From assembly GCA_050949565.1 (NCBI GenBank), contig JBMNFY010000017.1, positions 1,344,001 through 1,408,000 on the forward strand: DNA of 64,000 nucleotides, in the 5' to 3' direction. The translations under genes and the position numbers were made by a program. The notes beneath the pieces are model-generated. The model ran no database searches, was not told the origin of the DNA, and saw nothing but the letters and a program-made list of their open reading frames with translations. This stretch comes from Kiritimatiellia bacterium (lineage in GTDB: Bacteria; Verrucomicrobiota; Kiritimatiellia; RFP12; UBA1067). Shown here one piece after another: positions 43,975-52,085 of this stretch (position 1 is its first letter; every line of letters begins with the position of its first letter).

Positions 43975-44051
43975 GCGCCTGTAGCTCAATTGGATAGAGT
44001 GTTGGCCTCCGAAGCCAAAGGTTGTGGGTTCAATCCCCGCCAGGCGCACCA
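43975..44051 (+). tRNA. tRNA-Arg (anticodon CCG), prophage attachment site
   Basis: GCGCCTG/CAGGCGC acceptor stem, TTGGC-CTCCGAA-GCCAA anticodon arm, CCA end; upstream TTGCAG-N17-TAATAT. Confidence 0.97.
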
Positions 44052-44560
44052 TCCGGAAATGAACCCGCGTTTGCAGACGTAAGTATCGTGTATACCGAGT
44101 CTTGCGCGGGTTCAATCTTTTTTTCGGGGGTGAGCGTAAGTTTGCCGAAAACGATCCGAACCAGGTCTTTTGTTTGGGCGACCGTGAGCCCCTCGATCAG
44201 CTCGGCTGGATTTGTAAACACGCCGATCAGGATGTCGATGCACTCGGAACGGTGGTCGGATGAAGCGTCGTGGGACTCCAGCCAGACGCGGTGTTCGGCC
44301 AGTTCGGAGGTCAGCCGGTCTTTTTCGGCGGCGTACTCTTCGGCCGAAAACACACCCTCCAGCAGTGCGCTGCGCAGCCGGGCAAGCTGCGGTTCAATCC
44401 GTGAGACGGCGCGCTGCCGACGGGCGCGCTCCGCACGATCCGGATCTTGCAGATCAAGGTCGTTAACGGCTCCTTTCAGAAGCTCCAAAAATGATGCGAT
44501 CTTGCCGAGGTCGGACAGCATGGCCTCGATCTGGGCGTGGATGTCGTCGCGGTTGCCGGG
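44030..44560 (-). pseudogene. C-terminal coiled-coil remnant of a large serine recombinase
   Basis: RLRSALLEGVFSAEEYAAEKDRL...KDLVRIVFGKLTL pattern; ORF ends inside the tRNA 3' end; no catalytic N-terminus. Confidence 0.65.
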
Positions 44561-44765
44561 AGACAAGAGCGCAAAACTGGCGGCTTTAGAACCGTCGTTT
44601 GAAAATGGAGATGTCCACGTCTACGCGCCGGGATGCGGGAAGTGGCTCGATCTGTGGCGGGAACAATTCGCGTCCTTCCCTGACGGGAAGAAAGACGACT
44701 TCTGCGACGCAACGGCGGTCATGTTCCATTCGCACGCCAAGGGCGGCTCGACGATGCTGATTTGA
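44550..44765 (+). pseudogene. C-terminal remnant of terminase large subunit (nuclease domain)
   Basis: GDK..KL..LEP.FENGDVH...QFASFPDGKKDDFCDA directly before the portal; no start codon or ATPase domain. Confidence 0.8.
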
Positions 44766-44781: not shown

Positions 44782-46302
44782 ATGAGCAACATCATCAGTA
44801 CACGGATTCACCGCATCCTCGCGGCGCGGCGCGAACAGATCGCGCGGAACATCGCCGCGTGGAGGGGCGGCCAGCCGTACATCGATCTGCGGCTGTGGCG
44901 CGCTCCGAACGAATCAGAACTGTCGTGGACGGGCACGCGGTCAGAGAGCGGCAAGCAGGTGTTTGTGAGCGTCGGGCGGAAGCAACGCGCGGCGATGATC
45001 AACGACGCCGGCCGGGTGGTCAGCAAGATCACGCAGTATCTGTTCAAGACTCACGCTGACAGGACCGGCATCGACGATGCGTGGGGCAAGGACGTGACCG
45101 GGCGCGGGCAGAGCGTCGGCAGCTTCTGGGTGGATGTTTCGGAGTTACTGACCGCCGGGCAGTGGGTGTGGCTACAGGTGGACCGGCTCGGGCAGATCAA
45201 GGACCCGATCACGGGGGAGATGCGGCAGCGCACACTGCTGGAGAAGCAGCGCGACAGCGACCAGGTGCGGTGGACGGCGTGGCCGAGCCTTTCAGTTCCG
45301 GACTGGTCGTTTGACTCGGCTGGCAGGCTGCAGTGGGTGATCACCGAGGGCGAGCAGTACGTGAACGACGACCCGAAGGTCGAGGCGGAAACGTACAAGC
45401 TGCGTACGCTGTGGGAGCGGACGGCGGGCGGGTACCGTGTGACGCAGTACCGTTCGGGCAAGGACGGCGAAAGCGTCCAGATCGGCGATACGGTGGCCGT
45501 CATCGGCGACGGTTTGCCATTCGTGCTGGTCGGGAAGCCAGATGAAGCCCCGTGGTGGTTCGATGACGTGGAATCGATACAGGCGCAACTGCTGAACCTC
45601 GACAGCCTGCATTACGAGAACCTGGTCCGCACCGTTTTTCCGCAGCTCGTGATCCCGACCGGCATGCTGGATTCATTGCAGTCCAAGCTGATCGAGCGCG
45701 TCGGTGCGCAGAACGGAGAAAAGATCGTCGAGCTGGTCAAGGAGATCGTCCGCGGGCTCGACGCGCCGATTGTCGAGTCAGCGGACGAGGCGGGAGTGAC
45801 GCGGTTCATCATGCCCGCTGCGAGCGACCAGAAAACGATTCCGGACGAGCTTCAGCGCAAGCGGGCGCTGCTGTTCGATATGGTTGGCCTGTCGCTGTTC
45901 AACAAAGAGACGCGGCAGATTCAGACGGCGGAATCTAAGCAGTTTGACCAGCTTGACACTGAATCGACGCTGAAGCACCGCGCCATCATCATGCAGGCGG
46001 CAGAGGAACGTCTGGTGGAAATCACGCTGAAGGTTGACCCGACGTTCGCGAAGTACACTCCGGTATGGCCGACATCGTTTGACGTGGTGGACGTGGAGTC
46101 CGACAGCGCGGCGATCGCCATGATCGGCAACCTGCCGGACATCACGCTGAGCATGCGCAAGATCGTTCTGCTGGCAGCCCTCCGGATCATCTCCGAGCGC
46201 GGCGGGTACGATCAGGACCTCATCGAGAAGGCGCGCCAGGAGATCAAGGACATCGCGGAAGAGCCGCCCGTAGAAGCAGGCGGCGACGGCCTCGATTTTT
46301 GA
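44782..46302 (+). CDS. Phage portal protein
   Basis: 506 aa, directly after TerL; SPP1-like C-terminal 'QTAESKQFD...L...E..L' helix. Confidence 0.75.
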   Translation: MSNIISTRIHRILAARREQIARNIAAWRGGQPYIDLRLWRAPNESELSWTGTRSESGKQVFVSVGRKQRAAMINDAGRVVSKITQYLFKTHADRTGIDDAWGKDVTGRGQSVGSFWVDVSELLTAGQWVWLQVDRLGQIKDPITGEMRQRTLLEKQRDSDQVRWTAWPSLSVPDWSFDSAGRLQWVITEGEQYVNDDPKVEAETYKLRTLWERTAGGYRVTQYRSGKDGESVQIGDTVAVIGDGLPFVLVGKPDEAPWWFDDVESIQAQLLNLDSLHYENLVRTVFPQLVIPTGMLDSLQSKLIERVGAQNGEKIVELVKEIVRGLDAPIVESADEAGVTRFIMPAASDQKTIPDELQRKRALLFDMVGLSLFNKETRQIQTAESKQFDQLDTESTLKHRAIIMQAAEERLVEITLKVDPTFAKYTPVWPTSFDVVDVESDSAAIAMIGNLPDITLSMRKIVLLAALRIISERGGYDQDLIEKARQEIKDIAEEPPVEAGGDGLDF

Positions 46303-46400
46303 CGCACAGGCCATCATTACCCAATCGCTGGCTCCGCAGGGCGTGTCTACTGCGGTGAAACGACGCGGCGTATTCCGCGCGACAACGGAGACAGGTATCC

Positions 46401-47093
46401 ATGAACATCAAGGACATTCTCGCCAAACTTGCCAAGGGAGAGGAACTCACGGACGCTGAGAAAGCCTTCCTGAAAACGTACGATCCCGACAAGGAAAAGA
46501 ACGATGCGGCGGCGGCCGCCCGGCGCAAGGCCGAAGAGGAAGCGGCAGCGCTGAAGGCGGAAAACGCCGAGCTGAAAAAGAAGGCCGACGAGGCGAAGAA
46601 GGCGGAGGACGAAGCGAAGAAATCGCAGATGACCGCCGACCAGAAACGCGACGCCGAGTTCGCCGAACTGAAGGCGAAGATCGAGGGTTTGGAGAAGGCC
46701 AAGACGGACGCCGAGCAGAAGGCGGCAGCCGTTCAGCGGTCGCAGACCATCCGCGACGCGGCGAAGGCCGCGGGCATCGCGCTCGCTCCGAAAACCGTAT
46801 CCGAGACACTGTTCTACCAGATGCTGGAGGCGACACTCTCCGGAATCGACATCACCAACCAAGAGGCGCTCACGGCGGCGCTCGACAAGTTCAAGACCGA
46901 GAACCCCGGCATTATCACCGCCCCCGGCAACGGCAGCGGCGTGAATCCCGGCGACCCGGCGAACAGCGACAAGTCGGGCAAAAACCCGTGGGCGAAGGAC
47001 ACGTTCAATCTGAGCGAGCAGGTCACGCTGCTCGAAAAAGACCCGGACAAGGCGCGCGCGCTCGCGGCCGAGGCCGGCGTCAAACTTGAGTAA
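46401..47093 (+). CDS. Phage capsid scaffolding protein
   Basis: Lys/Glu/Ala coiled coil ending in KNPWAKDTFNLSEQ..L..DP.KA.ALAAEAG; directly before the MCP. Confidence 0.85.
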   Translation: MNIKDILAKLAKGEELTDAEKAFLKTYDPDKEKNDAAAAARRKAEEEAAALKAENAELKKKADEAKKAEDEAKKSQMTADQKRDAEFAELKAKIEGLEKAKTDAEQKAAAVQRSQTIRDAAKAAGIALAPKTVSETLFYQMLEATLSGIDITNQEALTAALDKFKTENPGIITAPGNGSGVNPGDPANSDKSGKNPWAKDTFNLSEQVTLLEKDPDKARALAAEAGVKLE

Positions 47094-47107
47094 AGGAGCA
47101 AGTCGTT

Positions 47108-48100
47108 ATGGCTGCAACAGTACTACAGGACATTGTATTCAACAACGCATTCGCGTTGTATTTCCACCGCGCCGTGACCGAGCTTTCGGCGCTGGTGCAA
47201 TCCGGCATCGCGGCGGTCGATCCGCGCATCGCGGCGTTGTGCGCCGAGGCCGGATTCGGCGGCAAGACGGTAAACCTGCCGTTTTGGAATGCGCTCGACG
47301 GCGACGACGAAGTGACTCCGGACGGAGAGGATATCGGCGTCAGCCCGCTGACCGCCGGGCAGGACGTGGCGGTCATCCTGCGCCGCAGCAAGGCATGGGG
47401 CGTCACAGACCTGGCGGTCGAGATCGCCGGCGACGATCCCATGAAAACCCTCGCCGACAAACTCGCCAACTATTGGAACCGCCGCCGCCAGAAAGCGCTG
47501 TTCGCCCAGTTGACGGGTGTGTTCGCGAACAACGTCGCCGAAAACGACAGCGACCTTGTGCTCGACATCAGCGGCGAGACCGGAGATGACGCGCTGCTGT
47601 CGAAAGACACGCTGTTGTATGCGGCTCAACTGCTTGGCGACGCCAAGGGCGGTTTGACCGCCGTCGCTATGCACTCGATGTGCGAGACGGTTCTGAACAC
47701 CGGCAACACCGGCAACCTGTTCAAGCCGGCCGATTCTCCGGCCACGCTGCCCACCTACAACGGCCGCAAGATCGTGATGGACGACGGGTGCCCGTACAAC
47801 CCGACCACCAAAGTCGCCGACATTTACCTGTTCGGCGCAGGTGCTGTCGCGTTGAACCCTGTGCCGTCGCGAAGGCCGTTCGAGGTTGGACGCGCGCCGC
47901 TCTCAAGCACGGATCTGGTTGTTTCGCGGCAGGCGTGGATTTCGCACCTGCGCGGCATCAAATGGAATCCGGCTCAGGGGGTGCCTGCGGGCGCGACGCC
48001 CACTAACGCGGAGCTGGCCGATGGCGCCAACTGGTCGCGTGTGTACGACAAGAAGGAAATCCGCGTCGTCAAGCTGCGCTGCAAGCTCGCGGCGTCGTAA
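47108..48100 (+). CDS. Major capsid protein
   Basis: QSGI, GGKTVNLPFWNAL, R.KAWG..DLA..AG.DPM, MHS, Y.GR..V.DD and LA.GANW.RVY.K motifs. Confidence 0.9.
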   Translation: MAATVLQDIVFNNAFALYFHRAVTELSALVQSGIAAVDPRIAALCAEAGFGGKTVNLPFWNALDGDDEVTPDGEDIGVSPLTAGQDVAVILRRSKAWGVTDLAVEIAGDDPMKTLADKLANYWNRRRQKALFAQLTGVFANNVAENDSDLVLDISGETGDDALLSKDTLLYAAQLLGDAKGGLTAVAMHSMCETVLNTGNTGNLFKPADSPATLPTYNGRKIVMDDGCPYNPTTKVADIYLFGAGAVALNPVPSRRPFEVGRAPLSSTDLVVSRQAWISHLRGIKWNPAQGVPAGATPTNAELADGANWSRVYDKKEIRVVKLRCKLAAS

Positions 48101-48102
48101 TC

Positions 48103-48147
48103 CGCACGGGGCGGCGTCTGCCAATTCCGGACGCGCCCCGCTTTTCT
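48103..48147 (+). terminator. Putative intrinsic terminator after the MCP
   Basis: CGGGGCGGCGTCTG...CCGGACGCGCCCCG followed by CTTTT. Confidence 0.5.
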
Positions 48148-48169
48148 CACTCCAACGGAGACGAATTGT

Positions 48170-48589
48170 ATGAAAAAGATGTTCCTGATTCTGGCGTTTC
48201 TCGTGGCCGTCGCGGGCTACGTGGACATGGCCGCGGCAGCGCCGGCGGCAAGCGACGTAGTATGCAACGACAAGCTGATCCCGACCAACAAGGTCGTGAG
48301 TTTCACGCTGTCGCAACGGTACACCTCGCGCCCGATCTGGCTGAACGTGGACGCGGCCTATCCCGACAACGGGACGGTGACCGTCCGCTGGTTGCACCAC
48401 CGTGCCGACGGCACGGTGCAGACCAACACGGCCGGCGCGATCTCGCTCACGTCCGGAGCGGTGAGCACGAACCTCGCGTCGCTGTTCACGCAGTACTGCT
48501 ATCCCGGCGAACCGGTGAGCGTGATTTTCAGCACGGCGACCAACGGCGCTTTGCAGGTGGTCGGCGAACTGTACGGATCTCGGAAATAG
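48170..48589 (+). CDS. Phage hypothetical protein with Sec-type signal peptide
   Basis: MKKMFLILAFLVAVAG...AAA followed by a beta-rich domain; GGAG RBS. Confidence 0.7.
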   Translation: MKKMFLILAFLVAVAGYVDMAAAAPAASDVVCNDKLIPTNKVVSFTLSQRYTSRPIWLNVDAAYPDNGTVTVRWLHHRADGTVQTNTAGAISLTSGAVSTNLASLFTQYCYPGEPVSVIFSTATNGALQVVGELYGSRK

Positions 48590-48598
48590 GAGGCTTCC

Positions 48599-48853
48599 AT
48601 GGCTGAGAAGAAACCCAACGACACACTCTCACTCTACCGGTCGCACTGCCAGGCGGCGCGCAACCGGGCAGACGCGGCGCTTGCGAAAGCCGTTGCCGCC
48701 GTTCTGCCGAAGCAGCTCGCTGCCGACGGCGACAAGCCACCCATCCCCCCGCCCGGCGGGGATAAAACGAACCCTGACCCGGACGCGGACAAATCCGCCG
48801 ACGCGCCGAAGCCTGCGCCGAAGCCTGCGCCGACGGGCAAGAAGCGCGGGTAA
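48599..48853 (+). CDS. Phage hypothetical protein (Pro/Lys-rich tail)
   Basis: GGAGG RBS; in operon; followed by a terminator-like hairpin. Confidence 0.6.
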   Translation: MAEKKPNDTLSLYRSHCQAARNRADAALAKAVAAVLPKQLAADGDKPPIPPPGGDKTNPDPDADKSADAPKPAPKPAPTGKKRG

Positions 48854-48875
48854 CCAAATTAACCCCCCAATGAAC

Positions 48876-48920
48876 GCGCCGCTCCGGCATGGGACCCCCC
48901 GTGACGGGGCGGCTTTTTTG
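48876..48920 (+). terminator. Putative intrinsic terminator
   Basis: GCCGCTCCGGCATGGG...CCCGTGACGGGGCGGC followed by TTTTTT. Confidence 0.6.
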
Positions 48921-48929
48921 TGAGGCACC

Positions 48930-49316
48930 ATGATTTCTTTCGACAGAGCGCAAACCTACTTCGGAGCAGAGAACCACCACAAGGCGGCCGTGTGGTCGGC
49001 GTTCGGACAGGCGCACAGGACAGGCGCGATCGCGGCGGCGCGGCGCGTGTTGTCGCGCGGGCTCGGCCGCTCGATGGATGAAAACGAACCTGCCTACAAA
49101 GAGGGCGACAGGACGCGCGACGAGTACGCCGTGTACGAACAGGCGTTGTGGATGCTGGAGAACGGGCAGGTGGCCGACGCCGACGGAAACGACCCTGTGC
49201 CGGTCTTGACCGGACGCCCGGACACGGAAGACGTGCGCAGCACAAGCGCATCGGTGTACGCGCCCGAGGCATTGCGATGGCTAGGCATGACAGGCGGCGC
49301 GGTGATCAGGGGGTGA
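48930..49316 (+). CDS. Head-tail adaptor-like protein
   Basis: S.D.A.TYF...W......A...A.R.L and A.YEQALW pattern typical of adaptor proteins; position. Confidence 0.6.
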   Translation: MISFDRAQTYFGAENHHKAAVWSAFGQAHRTGAIAAARRVLSRGLGRSMDENEPAYKEGDRTRDEYAVYEQALWMLENGQVADADGNDPVPVLTGRPDTEDVRSTSASVYAPEALRWLGMTGGAVIRG

Positions 49317-49319
49317 GAC

Positions 49320-49505
49320 GTGACGAGCATCAGCGTTAGGTTCACGCCCGGTCAGACGGTCGTTATTTTGGCTCTGAATGTCCAGGGATTCATCGAAAAC
49401 GTGCTGATCAGTCGCGGCAATGTAATCCGGTATGACGTGACCTATTGGTTCAACGGCAATCGCGAAACAAAATGCCTGACAGAGGAAGAGATCGATGCCG
49501 TCTAG
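49320..49505 (+). CDS. Small phage hypothetical protein
   Basis: 61-aa ORF coupled to both neighbours; SH3-like 'F..GQ.V....G.I....YDV.YW'. Confidence 0.5.
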   Translation: MTSISVRFTPGQTVVILALNVQGFIENVLISRGNVIRYDVTYWFNGNRETKCLTEEEIDAV

Positions 49506-51219
49506 TCTCCCGCCACCTCTCCGGAAGCTACGCGCGTACCAGACGCGCACGATGGCCGATCTCATGCGCGAACTGAAACGCGCCCGCAAAGAGGTGCGCG
49601 CGGCGATCGCGCTGGCCGCGGCGAAGGCAAAGGCAGCATCGAGCGCGAAGGAACGCGAGGAACTGTACGCGGAGATCGAAGAGAAGTACAGGGAGCTGGC
49701 CGAAAACATTGATGCGCAGATCAGAAAACTGACCGGCATTGCGGCGAAGGCGGGACATGACACGGCGTTGGCGGACATTGCGGATCGCGCGAAAATAACA
49801 GCTTACGACCCGGAACGCGCCGAGCGTTATTTCCAGCTCGTCCACCCGTCTAACGCGCAAAATCTGGCAGCCGTGTTCACCGACCAGATGAGCAGGCGGA
49901 CGGTCGAATCGTTACGGTTCGCCGTTGTTGATGCGTTCCGGCGCGGCGCGATCGAGGGCCTGTCCGCCAACGAGATGCAGCGGGCGATCCGCGACAAATG
50001 GGACGCGCTCGCCGGCAGCGAAGACCCGTTCCGGTTTGTTGATCGCGCGGGGCGCCGGTGGGAGGGCGCGCGATACCTGCAGATGGTGACGCGCACAACA
50101 GCGCAGCGCGTGGCCATCGAGAGCAGCATCGACACTTTTACGGCCAACGGCTACGAGTTGGCGCAGATCAGTCGAGGCGGCGACGGCGAATGCCCGATCT
50201 GCGCAGCGTGGGAAGGGCGTATCATCCAGATGGCCGGAAAATCGAAACGCTGGCCGACGTATGCCGAGGCGCGCGCGGCGGGCATGTTCCATCCCAACTG
50301 CGTCCATCGGCTGCTTCCCGTGGACAGCCTGGTGGACGCAGACGAGATCGAGCAGCAGGGGCGGATCACCAAGCCGACGGCCGACCAAATGGCAGACCCG
50401 GAGTTCATGCAGGCGCAGCACGACCAGATCGACGAGGCGCGATACATGGCCACAGGATTGACGGAAGAGGACGCCAGACGCGCCGTGACCGCCGACCGGC
50501 TGGAGAAGGCAATCAGAAGCGGGACATTTTCCGACGCAGCAGCAGAGGCAGCACGCATGCTTTCGCCGGAGCAGATCGACATGATCAGAGAGCGCGGCAT
50601 CCCGAAGTTTGAACAGGCGCGAAACAACGAGCAGCCGGGGACAAAATTTCAAGGCCGGCTTTTGACACCGCGCAACCCAAACGCCGACGACATTTTGCGG
50701 GTGCTCGGGCTGCCCAAGAGCGGGGGCGACACATCTCCGAAGCCGACACCGAAACCCCCTCCAAGCCTGAAACGCCTGGAGGGGAAGATCGGCGACTGGA
50801 AATCGTTGGGACTCGAAAAAGGGGAGTCCATGAAGGCCGACAACCGCGAGCCGCTCGTATCGGCAAAAGATGCCAGAGCGCGCATCGCCGCCGGTGAGAG
50901 TGTCGAGAATCCGATCGGGGAAACGTTGGCGTTTGACACCGTGACGCTCAAGTACTTGCTGAAATCAGACAGGAAGCCAAGCGATGTCCAGAAACGTTTG
51001 GCCGAGATGGATCAAGCGAAGGCGACGGTGGCGGCTCCGCATGAAATCTGGAAAGACCCGAAGACGGGGCGCAAGAAGTACATCCGTTTCGTCAAGGGCA
51101 GCGGCGGCAACATAGTCGTCAATGTCGTGGATCACAAGGGCAGGCATATCTATAGCTGGCACACGAACGAGCGCAGCCTGAACCATTGGAGAAAAGGGAC
51201 GCTGGTCTACGTCAGGTAA
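49495..51219 (+). CDS. Minor capsid (MuF/Phage_min_cap2-like) protein fused to a C-terminal PBECR2-like ribonuclease domain
   Basis: DRAGRRW...Y.QMV.RT, CPICAAWEG and FHPNCVH MuF motifs; Pro linker; C-terminal P.EIW.D...KKYIRF...W.....L..WRKG.LVY. Confidence 0.8.
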   Translation: MPSSLPPPLRKLRAYQTRTMADLMRELKRARKEVRAAIALAAAKAKAASSAKEREELYAEIEEKYRELAENIDAQIRKLTGIAAKAGHDTALADIADRAKITAYDPERAERYFQLVHPSNAQNLAAVFTDQMSRRTVESLRFAVVDAFRRGAIEGLSANEMQRAIRDKWDALAGSEDPFRFVDRAGRRWEGARYLQMVTRTTAQRVAIESSIDTFTANGYELAQISRGGDGECPICAAWEGRIIQMAGKSKRWPTYAEARAAGMFHPNCVHRLLPVDSLVDADEIEQQGRITKPTADQMADPEFMQAQHDQIDEARYMATGLTEEDARRAVTADRLEKAIRSGTFSDAAAEAARMLSPEQIDMIRERGIPKFEQARNNEQPGTKFQGRLLTPRNPNADDILRVLGLPKSGGDTSPKPTPKPPPSLKRLEGKIGDWKSLGLEKGESMKADNREPLVSAKDARARIAAGESVENPIGETLAFDTVTLKYLLKSDRKPSDVQKRLAEMDQAKATVAAPHEIWKDPKTGRKKYIRFVKGSGGNIVVNVVDHKGRHIYSWHTNERSLNHWRKGTLVYVR

Positions 51220-51380
51220 AAAAATGGCGGGCCCCCTTTCAAGGTCCCGCCTGAAGGTTAGACTCGCGCCCCCTTCCATGGACACGGGGGACTGTGCCGC
51301 CCCCCCCCAGCAACATCCGGTCGCAGCCTGGCACGGCTACCGGATCGCCCCTTACGGGTAGTCGGAGACTTTCCCGTAGC
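51218..51380 (-). ncRNA. Candidate structured small RNA convergent with the MuF-nuclease gene
   Basis: Own promoter (TTGACA-N18-TATCTT with extended TG), four hairpins, and terminator GGCGGGACC-TTGAAAG-GGGGCCCGCC-ATTTTTTT. Confidence 0.6.
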
Positions 51381-51386
51381 AGTGTT

Positions 51387-51416
51387 AAGATAGCATTTAT
51401 CCGGCCTTTGTGTCAA
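51387..51416 (-). promoter_or_regulatory. Sigma70-like promoter, antisense to the late operon
   Basis: Minus strand TTGACAcaaaggccggataaaTGcTATCTT. Confidence 0.7.
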
Positions 51417-51529
51417 CCGCTGATTTTGACAAATTCCGCCCCGCGTTCCGCCCCCTTGATTTTGACGCGCCGGCCATAGTTGCACACTGTACACGCCGAC
51501 ACTCGCATGTCGTGTTGATTCCTTCACTA

Positions 51530-51570
51530 GCCTCCCCCGTCTGACCACAGGCGGGGGAGGTTTTTGTTTT
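51530..51570 (+). terminator. Intrinsic terminator
   Basis: CCTCCCCCGTCTG-ACCA-CAGGCGGGGGAGG-TTTTTGTTTT. Confidence 0.8.
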
Positions 51571-51587
51571 ACCGTATGGCCATAGCT

Positions 51588-52085
51588 ATGGACGTGATCG
51601 TAACAGGGACAGAGGAACTGCTCGCCGCATTAGACAAGTTGCCTGCGACAGCCCGGGCTGCGGCCGTACGCGGAATCACGCGAGCCACTACGCTCGTGTG
51701 GCGCGAATCGGTGAAGAACGCGCCGAGATCGCCGACGGCGGCGCAGAAGGCCAGATTCACGCGCAAGACGCGCCGCGACACATCGGCAAGACGAAAGGCA
51801 ACGGCGCACACACGCGCGAAACCGGGCGGTCTGGAACGCTCAATTTCGATGGACGTGAACGCATCCGCAATCGCGGGTGCGGTGTTCGTGGCTCGGAACG
51901 CGGAGGCCGGAAAGTACGCCAAGCGTATCCACGATGAAAAGGGGGCTTCGTGGCAGAACAGAGGCCCGGGAACAATCGCCAAGGGTCCGCGAGCAGACGA
52001 ACTGTTCATCTCCCGTGCGCTTGAAGATAACCGCCCGAAGATCGACGCGATCATGGCGGAAGAAATGCGGAAGGTGGACCTATGA
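51588..52085 (+). CDS. HK97 gp10-like tail completion protein
   Basis: V.G.EEL.AAL..L..., GGLERSI, YAKRIHDE and FI.RAL pattern. Confidence 0.7.
   Translation: MDVIVTGTEELLAALDKLPATARAAAVRGITRATTLVWRESVKNAPRSPTAAQKARFTRKTRRDTSARRKATAHTRAKPGGLERSISMDVNASAIAGAVFVARNAEAGKYAKRIHDEKGASWQNRGPGTIAKGPRADELFISRALEDNRPKIDAIMAEEMRKVDL

Follow-up and report, generated by a model that had tools for sequence, protein, structure and literature searches.

A 64,000-nucleotide stretch of a Kiritimatiellia bacterium genome (contig JBMNFY010000017.1, positions 1,344,001 to 1,408,000; the whole stretch is referred to as the window) contains, on its plus strand at 49495-51219, a minor capsid or MuF-type phage gene whose product ends in a PBECR2 nuclease-like domain. 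Directly behind this gene, on the minus strand, lies a predicted small RNA gene of about 160 nt (51218-51380, both ends being predicted), which was delineated from its minimum-free-energy fold, from sequence identity with a related prophage, and from contigs of RNA libraries. The PBECR2 domain and the downstream small RNA gene are a two-part cassette. Many genomes carry such an RNA gene after a related nuclease domain, and this RNA is therefore probably a partner of the nuclease, or its antidote.

A nuclease-like domain and an RNA gene in one cassette

The 574-residue product of 49495-51219 matched Phage_min_cap2 in Pfam (PF06152, E = 1.4e-15, residues 10 to 275) and, at its C terminus, PBECR2 (PF18810, E = 5.8e-8, residues 494 to 572; 33.4 bits, against a gathering cutoff of 27.1). 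With the C-terminal domain alone, PF18810 scored 36.3 bits against the same cutoff, and a search of PHROG identified the product as a minor head protein (7.9e-25). A preliminary description of this DNA, made from the sequence, had named the gene as a MuF gene ending in a PBECR2-like domain, and the two Pfam matches bear this out. What recurs together with the RNA gene is a C-terminal module of 145 residues (430 to 574; 50782-51216, plus strand); PF18810 matched 12 of 12 aligned relatives and gave no match in 14 control genomes.

The AlphaFold2 model of the module (predicted local distance difference test score 95.5, predicted template modeling score 0.90) has helices at 66-84, followed by strands; the BECR fold was taken to be an N-terminal helix and a meandering four-stranded sheet. 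In the structural search proposed in the preliminary description for residues ∼430 to 574, Foldseek gave no match at an E value of 0.001 or below, and an exhaustive comparison with VIA-align placed BECR-type RNase toxins first, at weak Z scores of 3.0 to 4.5, with none at 5 or above (7m5f_C, 4.5; 7vd7_A, 4.0; 6cp9_A, 4.0; 5znm_B, 3.5; 3u97_A, 3.4; 3ao9_A, 3.0). The top neighbors comprise three CdiA-CT toxins, a Salmonella toxin from a toxin-antitoxin complex (7vd7), colicin D, BrnT, and colicin E5. A profile of the module found no match among the sequences of the PDB, and PADLOC assigned none of four proteins to a defense family. In the family alignment, R72, L73, P86, E88, and W90 (domain numbering) are invariant, and Y100, R137, and G139 are nearly so. 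According to Iyer et al. 2017 (PMC5512222), the active site of BECR RNases consists of a His or Arg in the first core helix and a C-terminal polar residue; judged from the alignment, the conserved residues fit an active, or at least an RNA-binding, site.

The spacer that follows the PBECR2 gene occupies 51220-51563 (344 nt) and is single-copy in the genome. It contains no tRNA or tmRNA, and the comparison with Rfam that had been suggested earlier yielded no family match, either for the spacer (at E values of up to 10) or for 18 related loci (at gathering score). The minus strand of the spacer carries a sigma-70-like promoter at 51416-51387, with TTGACA at −35 (51416-51411), an 18-nt spacer, TATCTT at −10 (51392-51387), 10 of 12 matches to the consensus, and a TG upstream. 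A consensus scan of 50800-51900 returned exactly this one promoter-like site, with 0.2 expected from shuffled sequences. At the other end, a minus-strand terminator is formed by a hairpin at 51226-51251 and U7 (seven A residues at 51218-51224), and two of the seven A residues belong to the TAA stop codon of the capsid gene (51217-51219); with a loop of more than 8 nt, this hairpin escaped the scan. The near-consensus promoter and the U-tract touching the toxin stop codon, both noted in the preliminary description, are thus confirmed, and its claim of a self-contained minus-strand RNA gene is supported. The four hairpins that it had named correspond to those of the minimum-free-energy fold (−78.7 kcal/mol), which contains H1 (51378-51353), H2 (51345-51315, with the loop GUGCC at 51334-51330), H3 (approximately 51306-51286, with the loop GGCAC at 51298-51294), a bulged hairpin, H4 (51276-51253), and the terminator hairpin (51251-51226) with its U-tract (51224-51218).

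Comparison with one related prophage (L002/L003, referred to as L003), whose spacer is 94% identical, delimited the conserved unit. In 100-base bins, identity was 93 to 96% over 51200-51500 and 95 to 96% in the RNA region, against 55 to 80% in its flanks. Within the capsid gene, DNA identity was 69 to 82% in the N-terminal two-thirds, fell to 53% in a linker near position 50700, which also contains a 48-base indel, and reached 87 to 92% in the C-terminal domain; in the next gene, from 51564, it was 55 to 65%, a drop that sets the right-hand limit of the conserved cassette. Domain and spacer (50800 to 51500) are therefore conserved together between diverged flanks and behave as one cassette. 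Changes inside the predicted RNA fall in loops or, in the variant L024, convert a G-U to a G-C pair. Of six small open reading frames (ORFs) in the spacer, five are frameshifted, have lost their start, or have changed frame in L003; the sixth (51224-51361, plus strand) has lost its stop there and shows 2 nonsynonymous substitutions in 45 codons. No small immunity ORF directly downstream is thus conserved in this one diverged relative, in line with the earlier statement that none is present; the 370 bp given there for the region has to be corrected to 344 nt.

Recurrence and structure of the RNA unit

We collected 45 distinct downstream regions of genes with the same domain, all from the same phylum. 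A search with a single sequence had found the domain in 16 of 401 genomes of the phylum, a search with a domain profile found it in 35 of 301 genomes of the order, and a further search found it in 22 of 401 of the phylum at an E value of 1e-6 or below; the 45 regions also draw on other loci that had been retrieved. On the strand opposite to the gene, 26 of the 45 regions had a promoter score at or above the 95th percentile of the background, compared with none on the gene strand and 7% of random 210-nt windows; at the 99th percentile the counts were 9 of 45 and 0 of 45, with a background of 1.1%. A plain regular expression gave a similar picture (26 of 39 on the opposite strand versus 0 of 39 on the gene strand; 4.3% of random windows). 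Terminator-like hairpins within 75 nt of the stop codon were found on the opposite strand in 24 loci and on the gene strand in 1 of 45, and their stems end between −4 and +14 nt from the stop codon. At least one signal was present in 36 of 45 loci, and both were present in 14; with one locus counted per RNA sequence cluster, these numbers were 19 and 7 of 26. The predicted RNAs of the relatives are 70 to 180 nt long, and the spacers, likewise of 70 to 180 nt, are filled by the convergent RNA unit. These units hold no conserved ORF: the longest complete ORFs have 0 to 47 codons, and the class alignments include indels of lengths not divisible by three (in the class A8, described below, 1 and 5 columns).

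Pfam searches were run on 36 of the 45 ORFs, near-duplicates being left out, and PBECR2 was found in 25 of them at an E value of 0.001 or below. Its N-terminal partners are Phage_min_cap2 (2 proteins), Phage_Mu_F (3), and Portal_Mu (2), with one protein exceeding 1,049 residues; relatives carry PF04233 or PF06074, and many PBECR2 proteins stand alone, with 130 to 300 residues. Fusion to Phage_min_cap2, Phage_Mu_F, or Portal_Mu makes no difference to the arrangement behind the domain, nor does the lack of a fusion partner; the RNA gene is thus specifically linked to the PBECR2 domain and not to MuF. One locus (L008) has two cassettes in tandem. A contig of another genome (G435) carries three stand-alone PBECR2 genes (L078, L076, and L069), each with an opposite-strand promoter-like site (scores of 9, 8, and 9), and the first of them follows a gene for a sigma-70 region 4/helix-turn-helix protein. 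Such tandem and stand-alone layouts recall the orphan toxin-immunity cassettes of polymorphic toxin loci. The Portal_Mu-PBECR2 fusion (L012, L013, and L088 to L100, the L012 type) was found on 13 viral contigs and in 2 genomes; among 8 variants, the RNA body of approximately 80 nt hardly changes, in contrast to the promoter spacer and the protein.

Searches beyond this set returned little. The phage database gave no match by DNA or, with the domain, by tblastn, and a MuF-PBECR2 relative (P0004) matched it mainly via the MuF part. In Leptolyngbya phage Lsp-JY19, inspection by eye showed no promoter in a gap of 141 nt (the gap was unscored). A metagenome scan found near-identical relatives only, and scans of viral contigs returned the phage of the window itself, nothing, or one other class.

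The RNAs are very diverse, falling into 26 blastn clusters, and 41 of the 45 domains form a single protein cluster. Two RNA clusters were large enough for covariation to be examined, A8 (5 sequences) and A6 (6 sequences). In A8, 96.4% of the cells of the alignment are paired, against 36 to 48% when the partners are slid, and 13 pairs are changed on both sides, against 0 to 2; in A6 the corresponding values are 94.1%, against 34 to 44%, and 8 pairs, against 0 to 2. None of 500 shuffles reached the covariation score in either class, a count that overstates significance because the sets are small and their members related. Unpaired letters are conserved in both classes, and the stems vary. The pattern of substitutions points to selection on the RNA's own structure in A8 and A6; the compensatory changes proposed as a check in the preliminary description are thus present in these two classes, and the window's own class offers just four variants.

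In A8, five base pairs join the loop of H2 to the tip of H3; they are paired in 100% of cases and include one U-A/G-C switch. In the window, the helix between the loops GUGCC and GGCAC is built alike, with a third combination of letters at the two middle positions. The complementarity pointed out in the preliminary description therefore holds, and Watson-Crick pairing kept with different letters in three sequence types supports the loop-loop idea. A tally of the pair tables of A8 and A6 gave 35 G-U cells versus 4 A-C cells, an excess which indicates that the structures fold on the strand of the RNA gene and not on the mRNA strand. The members of A6 (L046, L048, L049, L053, L055, and L059) share an invariant GAAA/AGUA internal loop between covarying stems, which we take to resemble a loop E/sarcin-ricin-type motif, a common platform for protein binding. 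A covariance model of the A8 class, R1, was run on 33 genomes of that family and matched at 6 places in 4 of them; five of these places lie beside a PBECR2 gene and one at a contig end, with no free-standing copy among the 33 genomes. A whole-RNA MAFFT alignment of the long class was misaligned and gave no usable consensus.

Possible roles of the RNA

The reading that we tentatively favor, at a little short of an even chance, is that the folded RNA binds and neutralizes the predicted nuclease, as a type III-like antitoxin or immunity factor would. The RNA, of about 160 nt in the window, would be transcribed from its own host-type promoter toward the end of the nuclease gene and would terminate at the hairpin whose U-tract overlaps the stop codon. 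It would take a compact shape, with several hairpins, the H2-H3 loop-loop helix, and a bulged hairpin before the terminator, and in this form it would bind the nuclease domain and hold it inactive. Because it has its own promoter, it may be made while the late genes are silent. The activity of the domain as an RNase, the production of the RNA in lysogens, and contact between RNA and protein are all inferences. Neutralizing binding is favored because the shape and the unpaired letters of the RNA are conserved and the RNA lies outside the coding sequence, because the promoter is kept in stand-alone and tandem copies, and because the RNA shows no special pairing to the start region of its own gene: at 19 loci, the RNA core paired with cognate start regions with a mean of −37.1 kcal/mol and with noncognate ones with a mean of −38.6 kcal/mol, so that there was no cognate preference.

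Several observations weigh against neutralizing binding. The window RNA's own fold is thermodynamically weak (z = −1.71, with 10 of 200 shuffles equally good; z = −0.89 for the core without the terminator; z = +0.29 for the plus strand), and since the 14 copies collected comprise only four distinct variants, its structure rests on analogy with the other classes. Both promoter hexamers are weakened in L003 (TTGACG and TACCTT), and two variants of the L012 type (L099 and L100) have a stem-breaking change. Neither signal was detected at 9 of 45 loci by the criteria used; some loci scored as misses show a near-consensus promoter by eye and were not counted. All loci come from one phylum, and in Pseudomonas Mu-like phage PM105 the F gene is followed by no spacer. 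R1 detects only its own class and neither the window RNA nor the other classes; the RNA classes are therefore not demonstrably homologous, and their common ancestry is unproven. A generic descriptor of the bulged hairpin performed no better than on dinucleotide shuffles and was not used as evidence. The structural likeness of the predicted nuclease to RNase toxins is weak, with Z scores of at most 4.5.

The main alternative, which we consider somewhat unlikely, is a cis-antisense regulator of the type I kind. The RNA would pair with read-through late or nuclease mRNA, the duplex would be cut or would block expression, and leaky expression of the nuclease or of late genes would thereby be silenced in the lysogen, with no need for contact between RNA and protein. 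By construction, the RNA is fully complementary to any read-through transcript, and its 3′ end overlaps the stop codon; convergent antisense RNAs that overlap toxin 3′ ends are known from prophage type I systems. At the L012-type loci at least, the ATG of the next gene lies 5 nt beyond the −35 hexamer, so a polycistronic late mRNA must cross the RNA gene and would pair with the RNA just when the nuclease is made. Such read-through pairing in lytic growth suits an antisense role as well as, or better than, it suits binding to the protein. The overlap with the coding sequence is just a few nucleotides, however, and the absence of extra pairing to cognate start regions does not favor an antisense role. 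The conserved unpaired letters, the internal loop-loop helix, and the invariant G-U pairs point to selection on the three-dimensional shape of the RNA, and type I toxins are generally small membrane peptides, not nuclease domains of 145 residues.

Contigs from RNA libraries bear on the extent of read-through. Eleven runs labeled as RNA, from anaerobic digesters and similar habitats, contain part of the window, and contigs were examined from four runs, each of a different study. These reach from the end of the capsid gene into the spacer, as far as 51301, 51358, 51365, and 51308, respectively; no RNA contig lies over 51366-51561 in the four libraries, and coverage resumes at 51562 or 51600. With a predicted RNA start near 51380, two of the contigs stop 15 to 22 nt inside the RNA. 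The gap hints at little plus-strand read-through, a weak hint only, because the contigs carry no strand information, which also limits what they can say for a minus-strand RNA, and because assembly may break at variable sites or at a C9 run (51300-51308). One contig (run X6) joins 50930-50983 to 51206-51308 on opposite strands and may be an artifact of assembly or template switching.

Another alternative is that the domain uses or carries the RNA, as a guide, as a specificity factor, or as cargo packed in the capsid and delivered; we regard this as quite improbable. It accounts for the same co-occurrence and structure data as neutralizing binding does, and Iyer et al. 2017 (PMC5512222) proposed that the inactive PBECR of Mu F acts by binding RNA and that the fusions with MuF and portal proteins are packaged and then injected. 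Nothing in our data speaks for packaging or guiding, however; conservation of R72, E88, Y100, and R137 suits an enzyme as well as a binder, and the stand-alone copies have no head-protein part. Least probable, and in our view very improbable, is an independent moron-type small RNA, either a trans regulator of host or phage genes that travels with the end of the nuclease gene or a transcriptional boundary between blocks of late genes: promoter-gene-terminator units are common between phage late genes, and the sequence classes of the RNA are very diverse, but PBECR2 is followed by the unit in four fusion contexts as well as when it stands alone or in tandem, the unit always runs convergently and right up against the stop codon, and R1 found no free-standing copy in 33 genomes.

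If the RNA does neutralize the nuclease, lysogens might constantly make a folded RNA that binds PBECR2, whether the domain comes in with the DNA of a related phage or leaks from the prophage they carry, which would amount to RNA-based immunity to a virion-delivered RNase. We consider this extension unlikely. Were it true, immunity and kin discrimination among phages would be set by nuclease-RNA pairs, and these pairs would diversify and be stockpiled as orphan cassettes, like the protein toxin-immunity pairs of Rhs and contact-dependent inhibition (CDI) loci.

Genomic setting and comparison with known systems

The cassette lies in a phage late region in which a portal gene (44782-46302), a scaffold gene, a major capsid gene, 49495-51219, and a tail-completion/Neck1-like gene (51564-52085, plus strand; PHROG 5, 2.7e-5) follow one another, so the MuF-type N-terminal head-morphogenesis domain is surrounded by portal, scaffold, capsid, and neck genes. 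The order within 44782-52085 is unusual in that the MuF-type gene comes after the scaffold, the capsid, and three small genes, away from the portal. Among the head genes, an ORF of 139 residues (48170-48589, plus strand) has a signal-peptide-like N terminus and no PHROG match and may be a moron. Further upstream, a tRNA-Arg gene (ccg; 43975-44051) overlaps the start of an ORF (44022-44765) whose C terminus weakly resembles the terminase large subunit; a module boundary or an integration site may lie here.

Short direct repeats (51421-51466), kept in L003, were identified by a repeat scan in the stretch that separates the RNA promoter from the next gene: TGATTTTGAC occurs at 51421-51430 and 51457-51466, and TTCCGCCCC occurs at 51434-51442 and 51446-51454. 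They are possibly sites for a regulator, and their membership in the nuclease-RNA cassette is uncertain. A plus-strand terminator-like hairpin of 15 pairs with a T-run (51529-51571) was found by scanning directly before the next gene; 51400-51575 folds on the plus strand with a z of −3.2, and L003 differs in this hairpin by one change from G-U to G-C, its other changes being in the loop.

MuF polymorphic toxins (PMC5576092) and PBECR proteins (PMC5512222) likewise join a head-morphogenesis or portal protein of temperate phages to a variable C-terminal toxin-like domain, and the PBECR domains of polyvalent proteins likewise occur as cassette-like stand-alone copies (PMC5512222). Iyer et al. 2017, in their passages on PBECR fused to MuF and portal proteins, treat these fusions as injected RNases and mention no partner, and according to Jamet et al. 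[quoted passage not shown] In the window, by contrast, no such ORF is conserved, and an RNA gene occupies that position. An RNA partner is not mentioned in the available text of either paper, the terms "non-coding" and "intergenic" occurring 0 times in that of PMC5576092; "sRNA" and "antisense" likewise occur 0 times in a 2026 preprint on BECR RNases, and a full-text literature search returned no description of an RNA partner for such nucleases.

Type I toxin-antitoxin systems with a convergent, 3′-overlapping antisense RNA resemble the window in that the RNA has its own promoter and is transcribed toward the 3′ end of the toxin gene, and they are frequent in prophages. Their toxins are short hydrophobic peptides, whereas the candidate here is an alpha/beta domain of 145 residues; the window RNA overlaps the ORF at the stop codon only, and in A8 and A6 internal structure and unpaired letters of the RNA are conserved.

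Type III toxin-antitoxin systems (ToxIN, CptIN, and TenpIN) and AbiF/RCd22 (PMC8860590, PMC5772629) likewise combine a protein endoribonuclease with a structured, pseudoknotted RNA and are found on mobile elements and prophages. [quoted passage not shown] In type III systems, however, tandem RNA repeats lie upstream of the toxin gene and are cotranscribed with it, whereas the window RNA lies downstream on the opposite strand under its own promoter; 51150-51620 contains no tandem repeats, and the RNA is present in a single copy, unlike the type III layout. The nucleases also differ, being of the ToxN or AbiF type in those systems and of the BECR type (PF18810), at the tail of a virion protein, in the window. 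The likeness to type III antitoxins would thus be a functional analogy only.

The best structural neighbors of the module, weak as they are, belong to the BECR toxins with protein inhibitors (CdiA-CT/CdiI, colicin D/ImmD, colicin E5, BrnT/BrnA, and the RelE family). By their entry titles, these neighbors were solved with protein partners; in the window, an RNA gene stands in the partner's place. The general view is that proteins keep polymorphic toxins and BECR RNases in check, and to our knowledge no partner of PBECR domains is known. An RNA partner would explain why some phage nuclease genes have no immunity ORF, and the finding would define several uncatalogued classes of structured RNA. 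It makes testable what virion-borne PBECR nucleases do and how the producer is protected, and with an RNA gene conserved where the immunity gene would be expected, RNA would join proteins as a means of holding such toxins in check.

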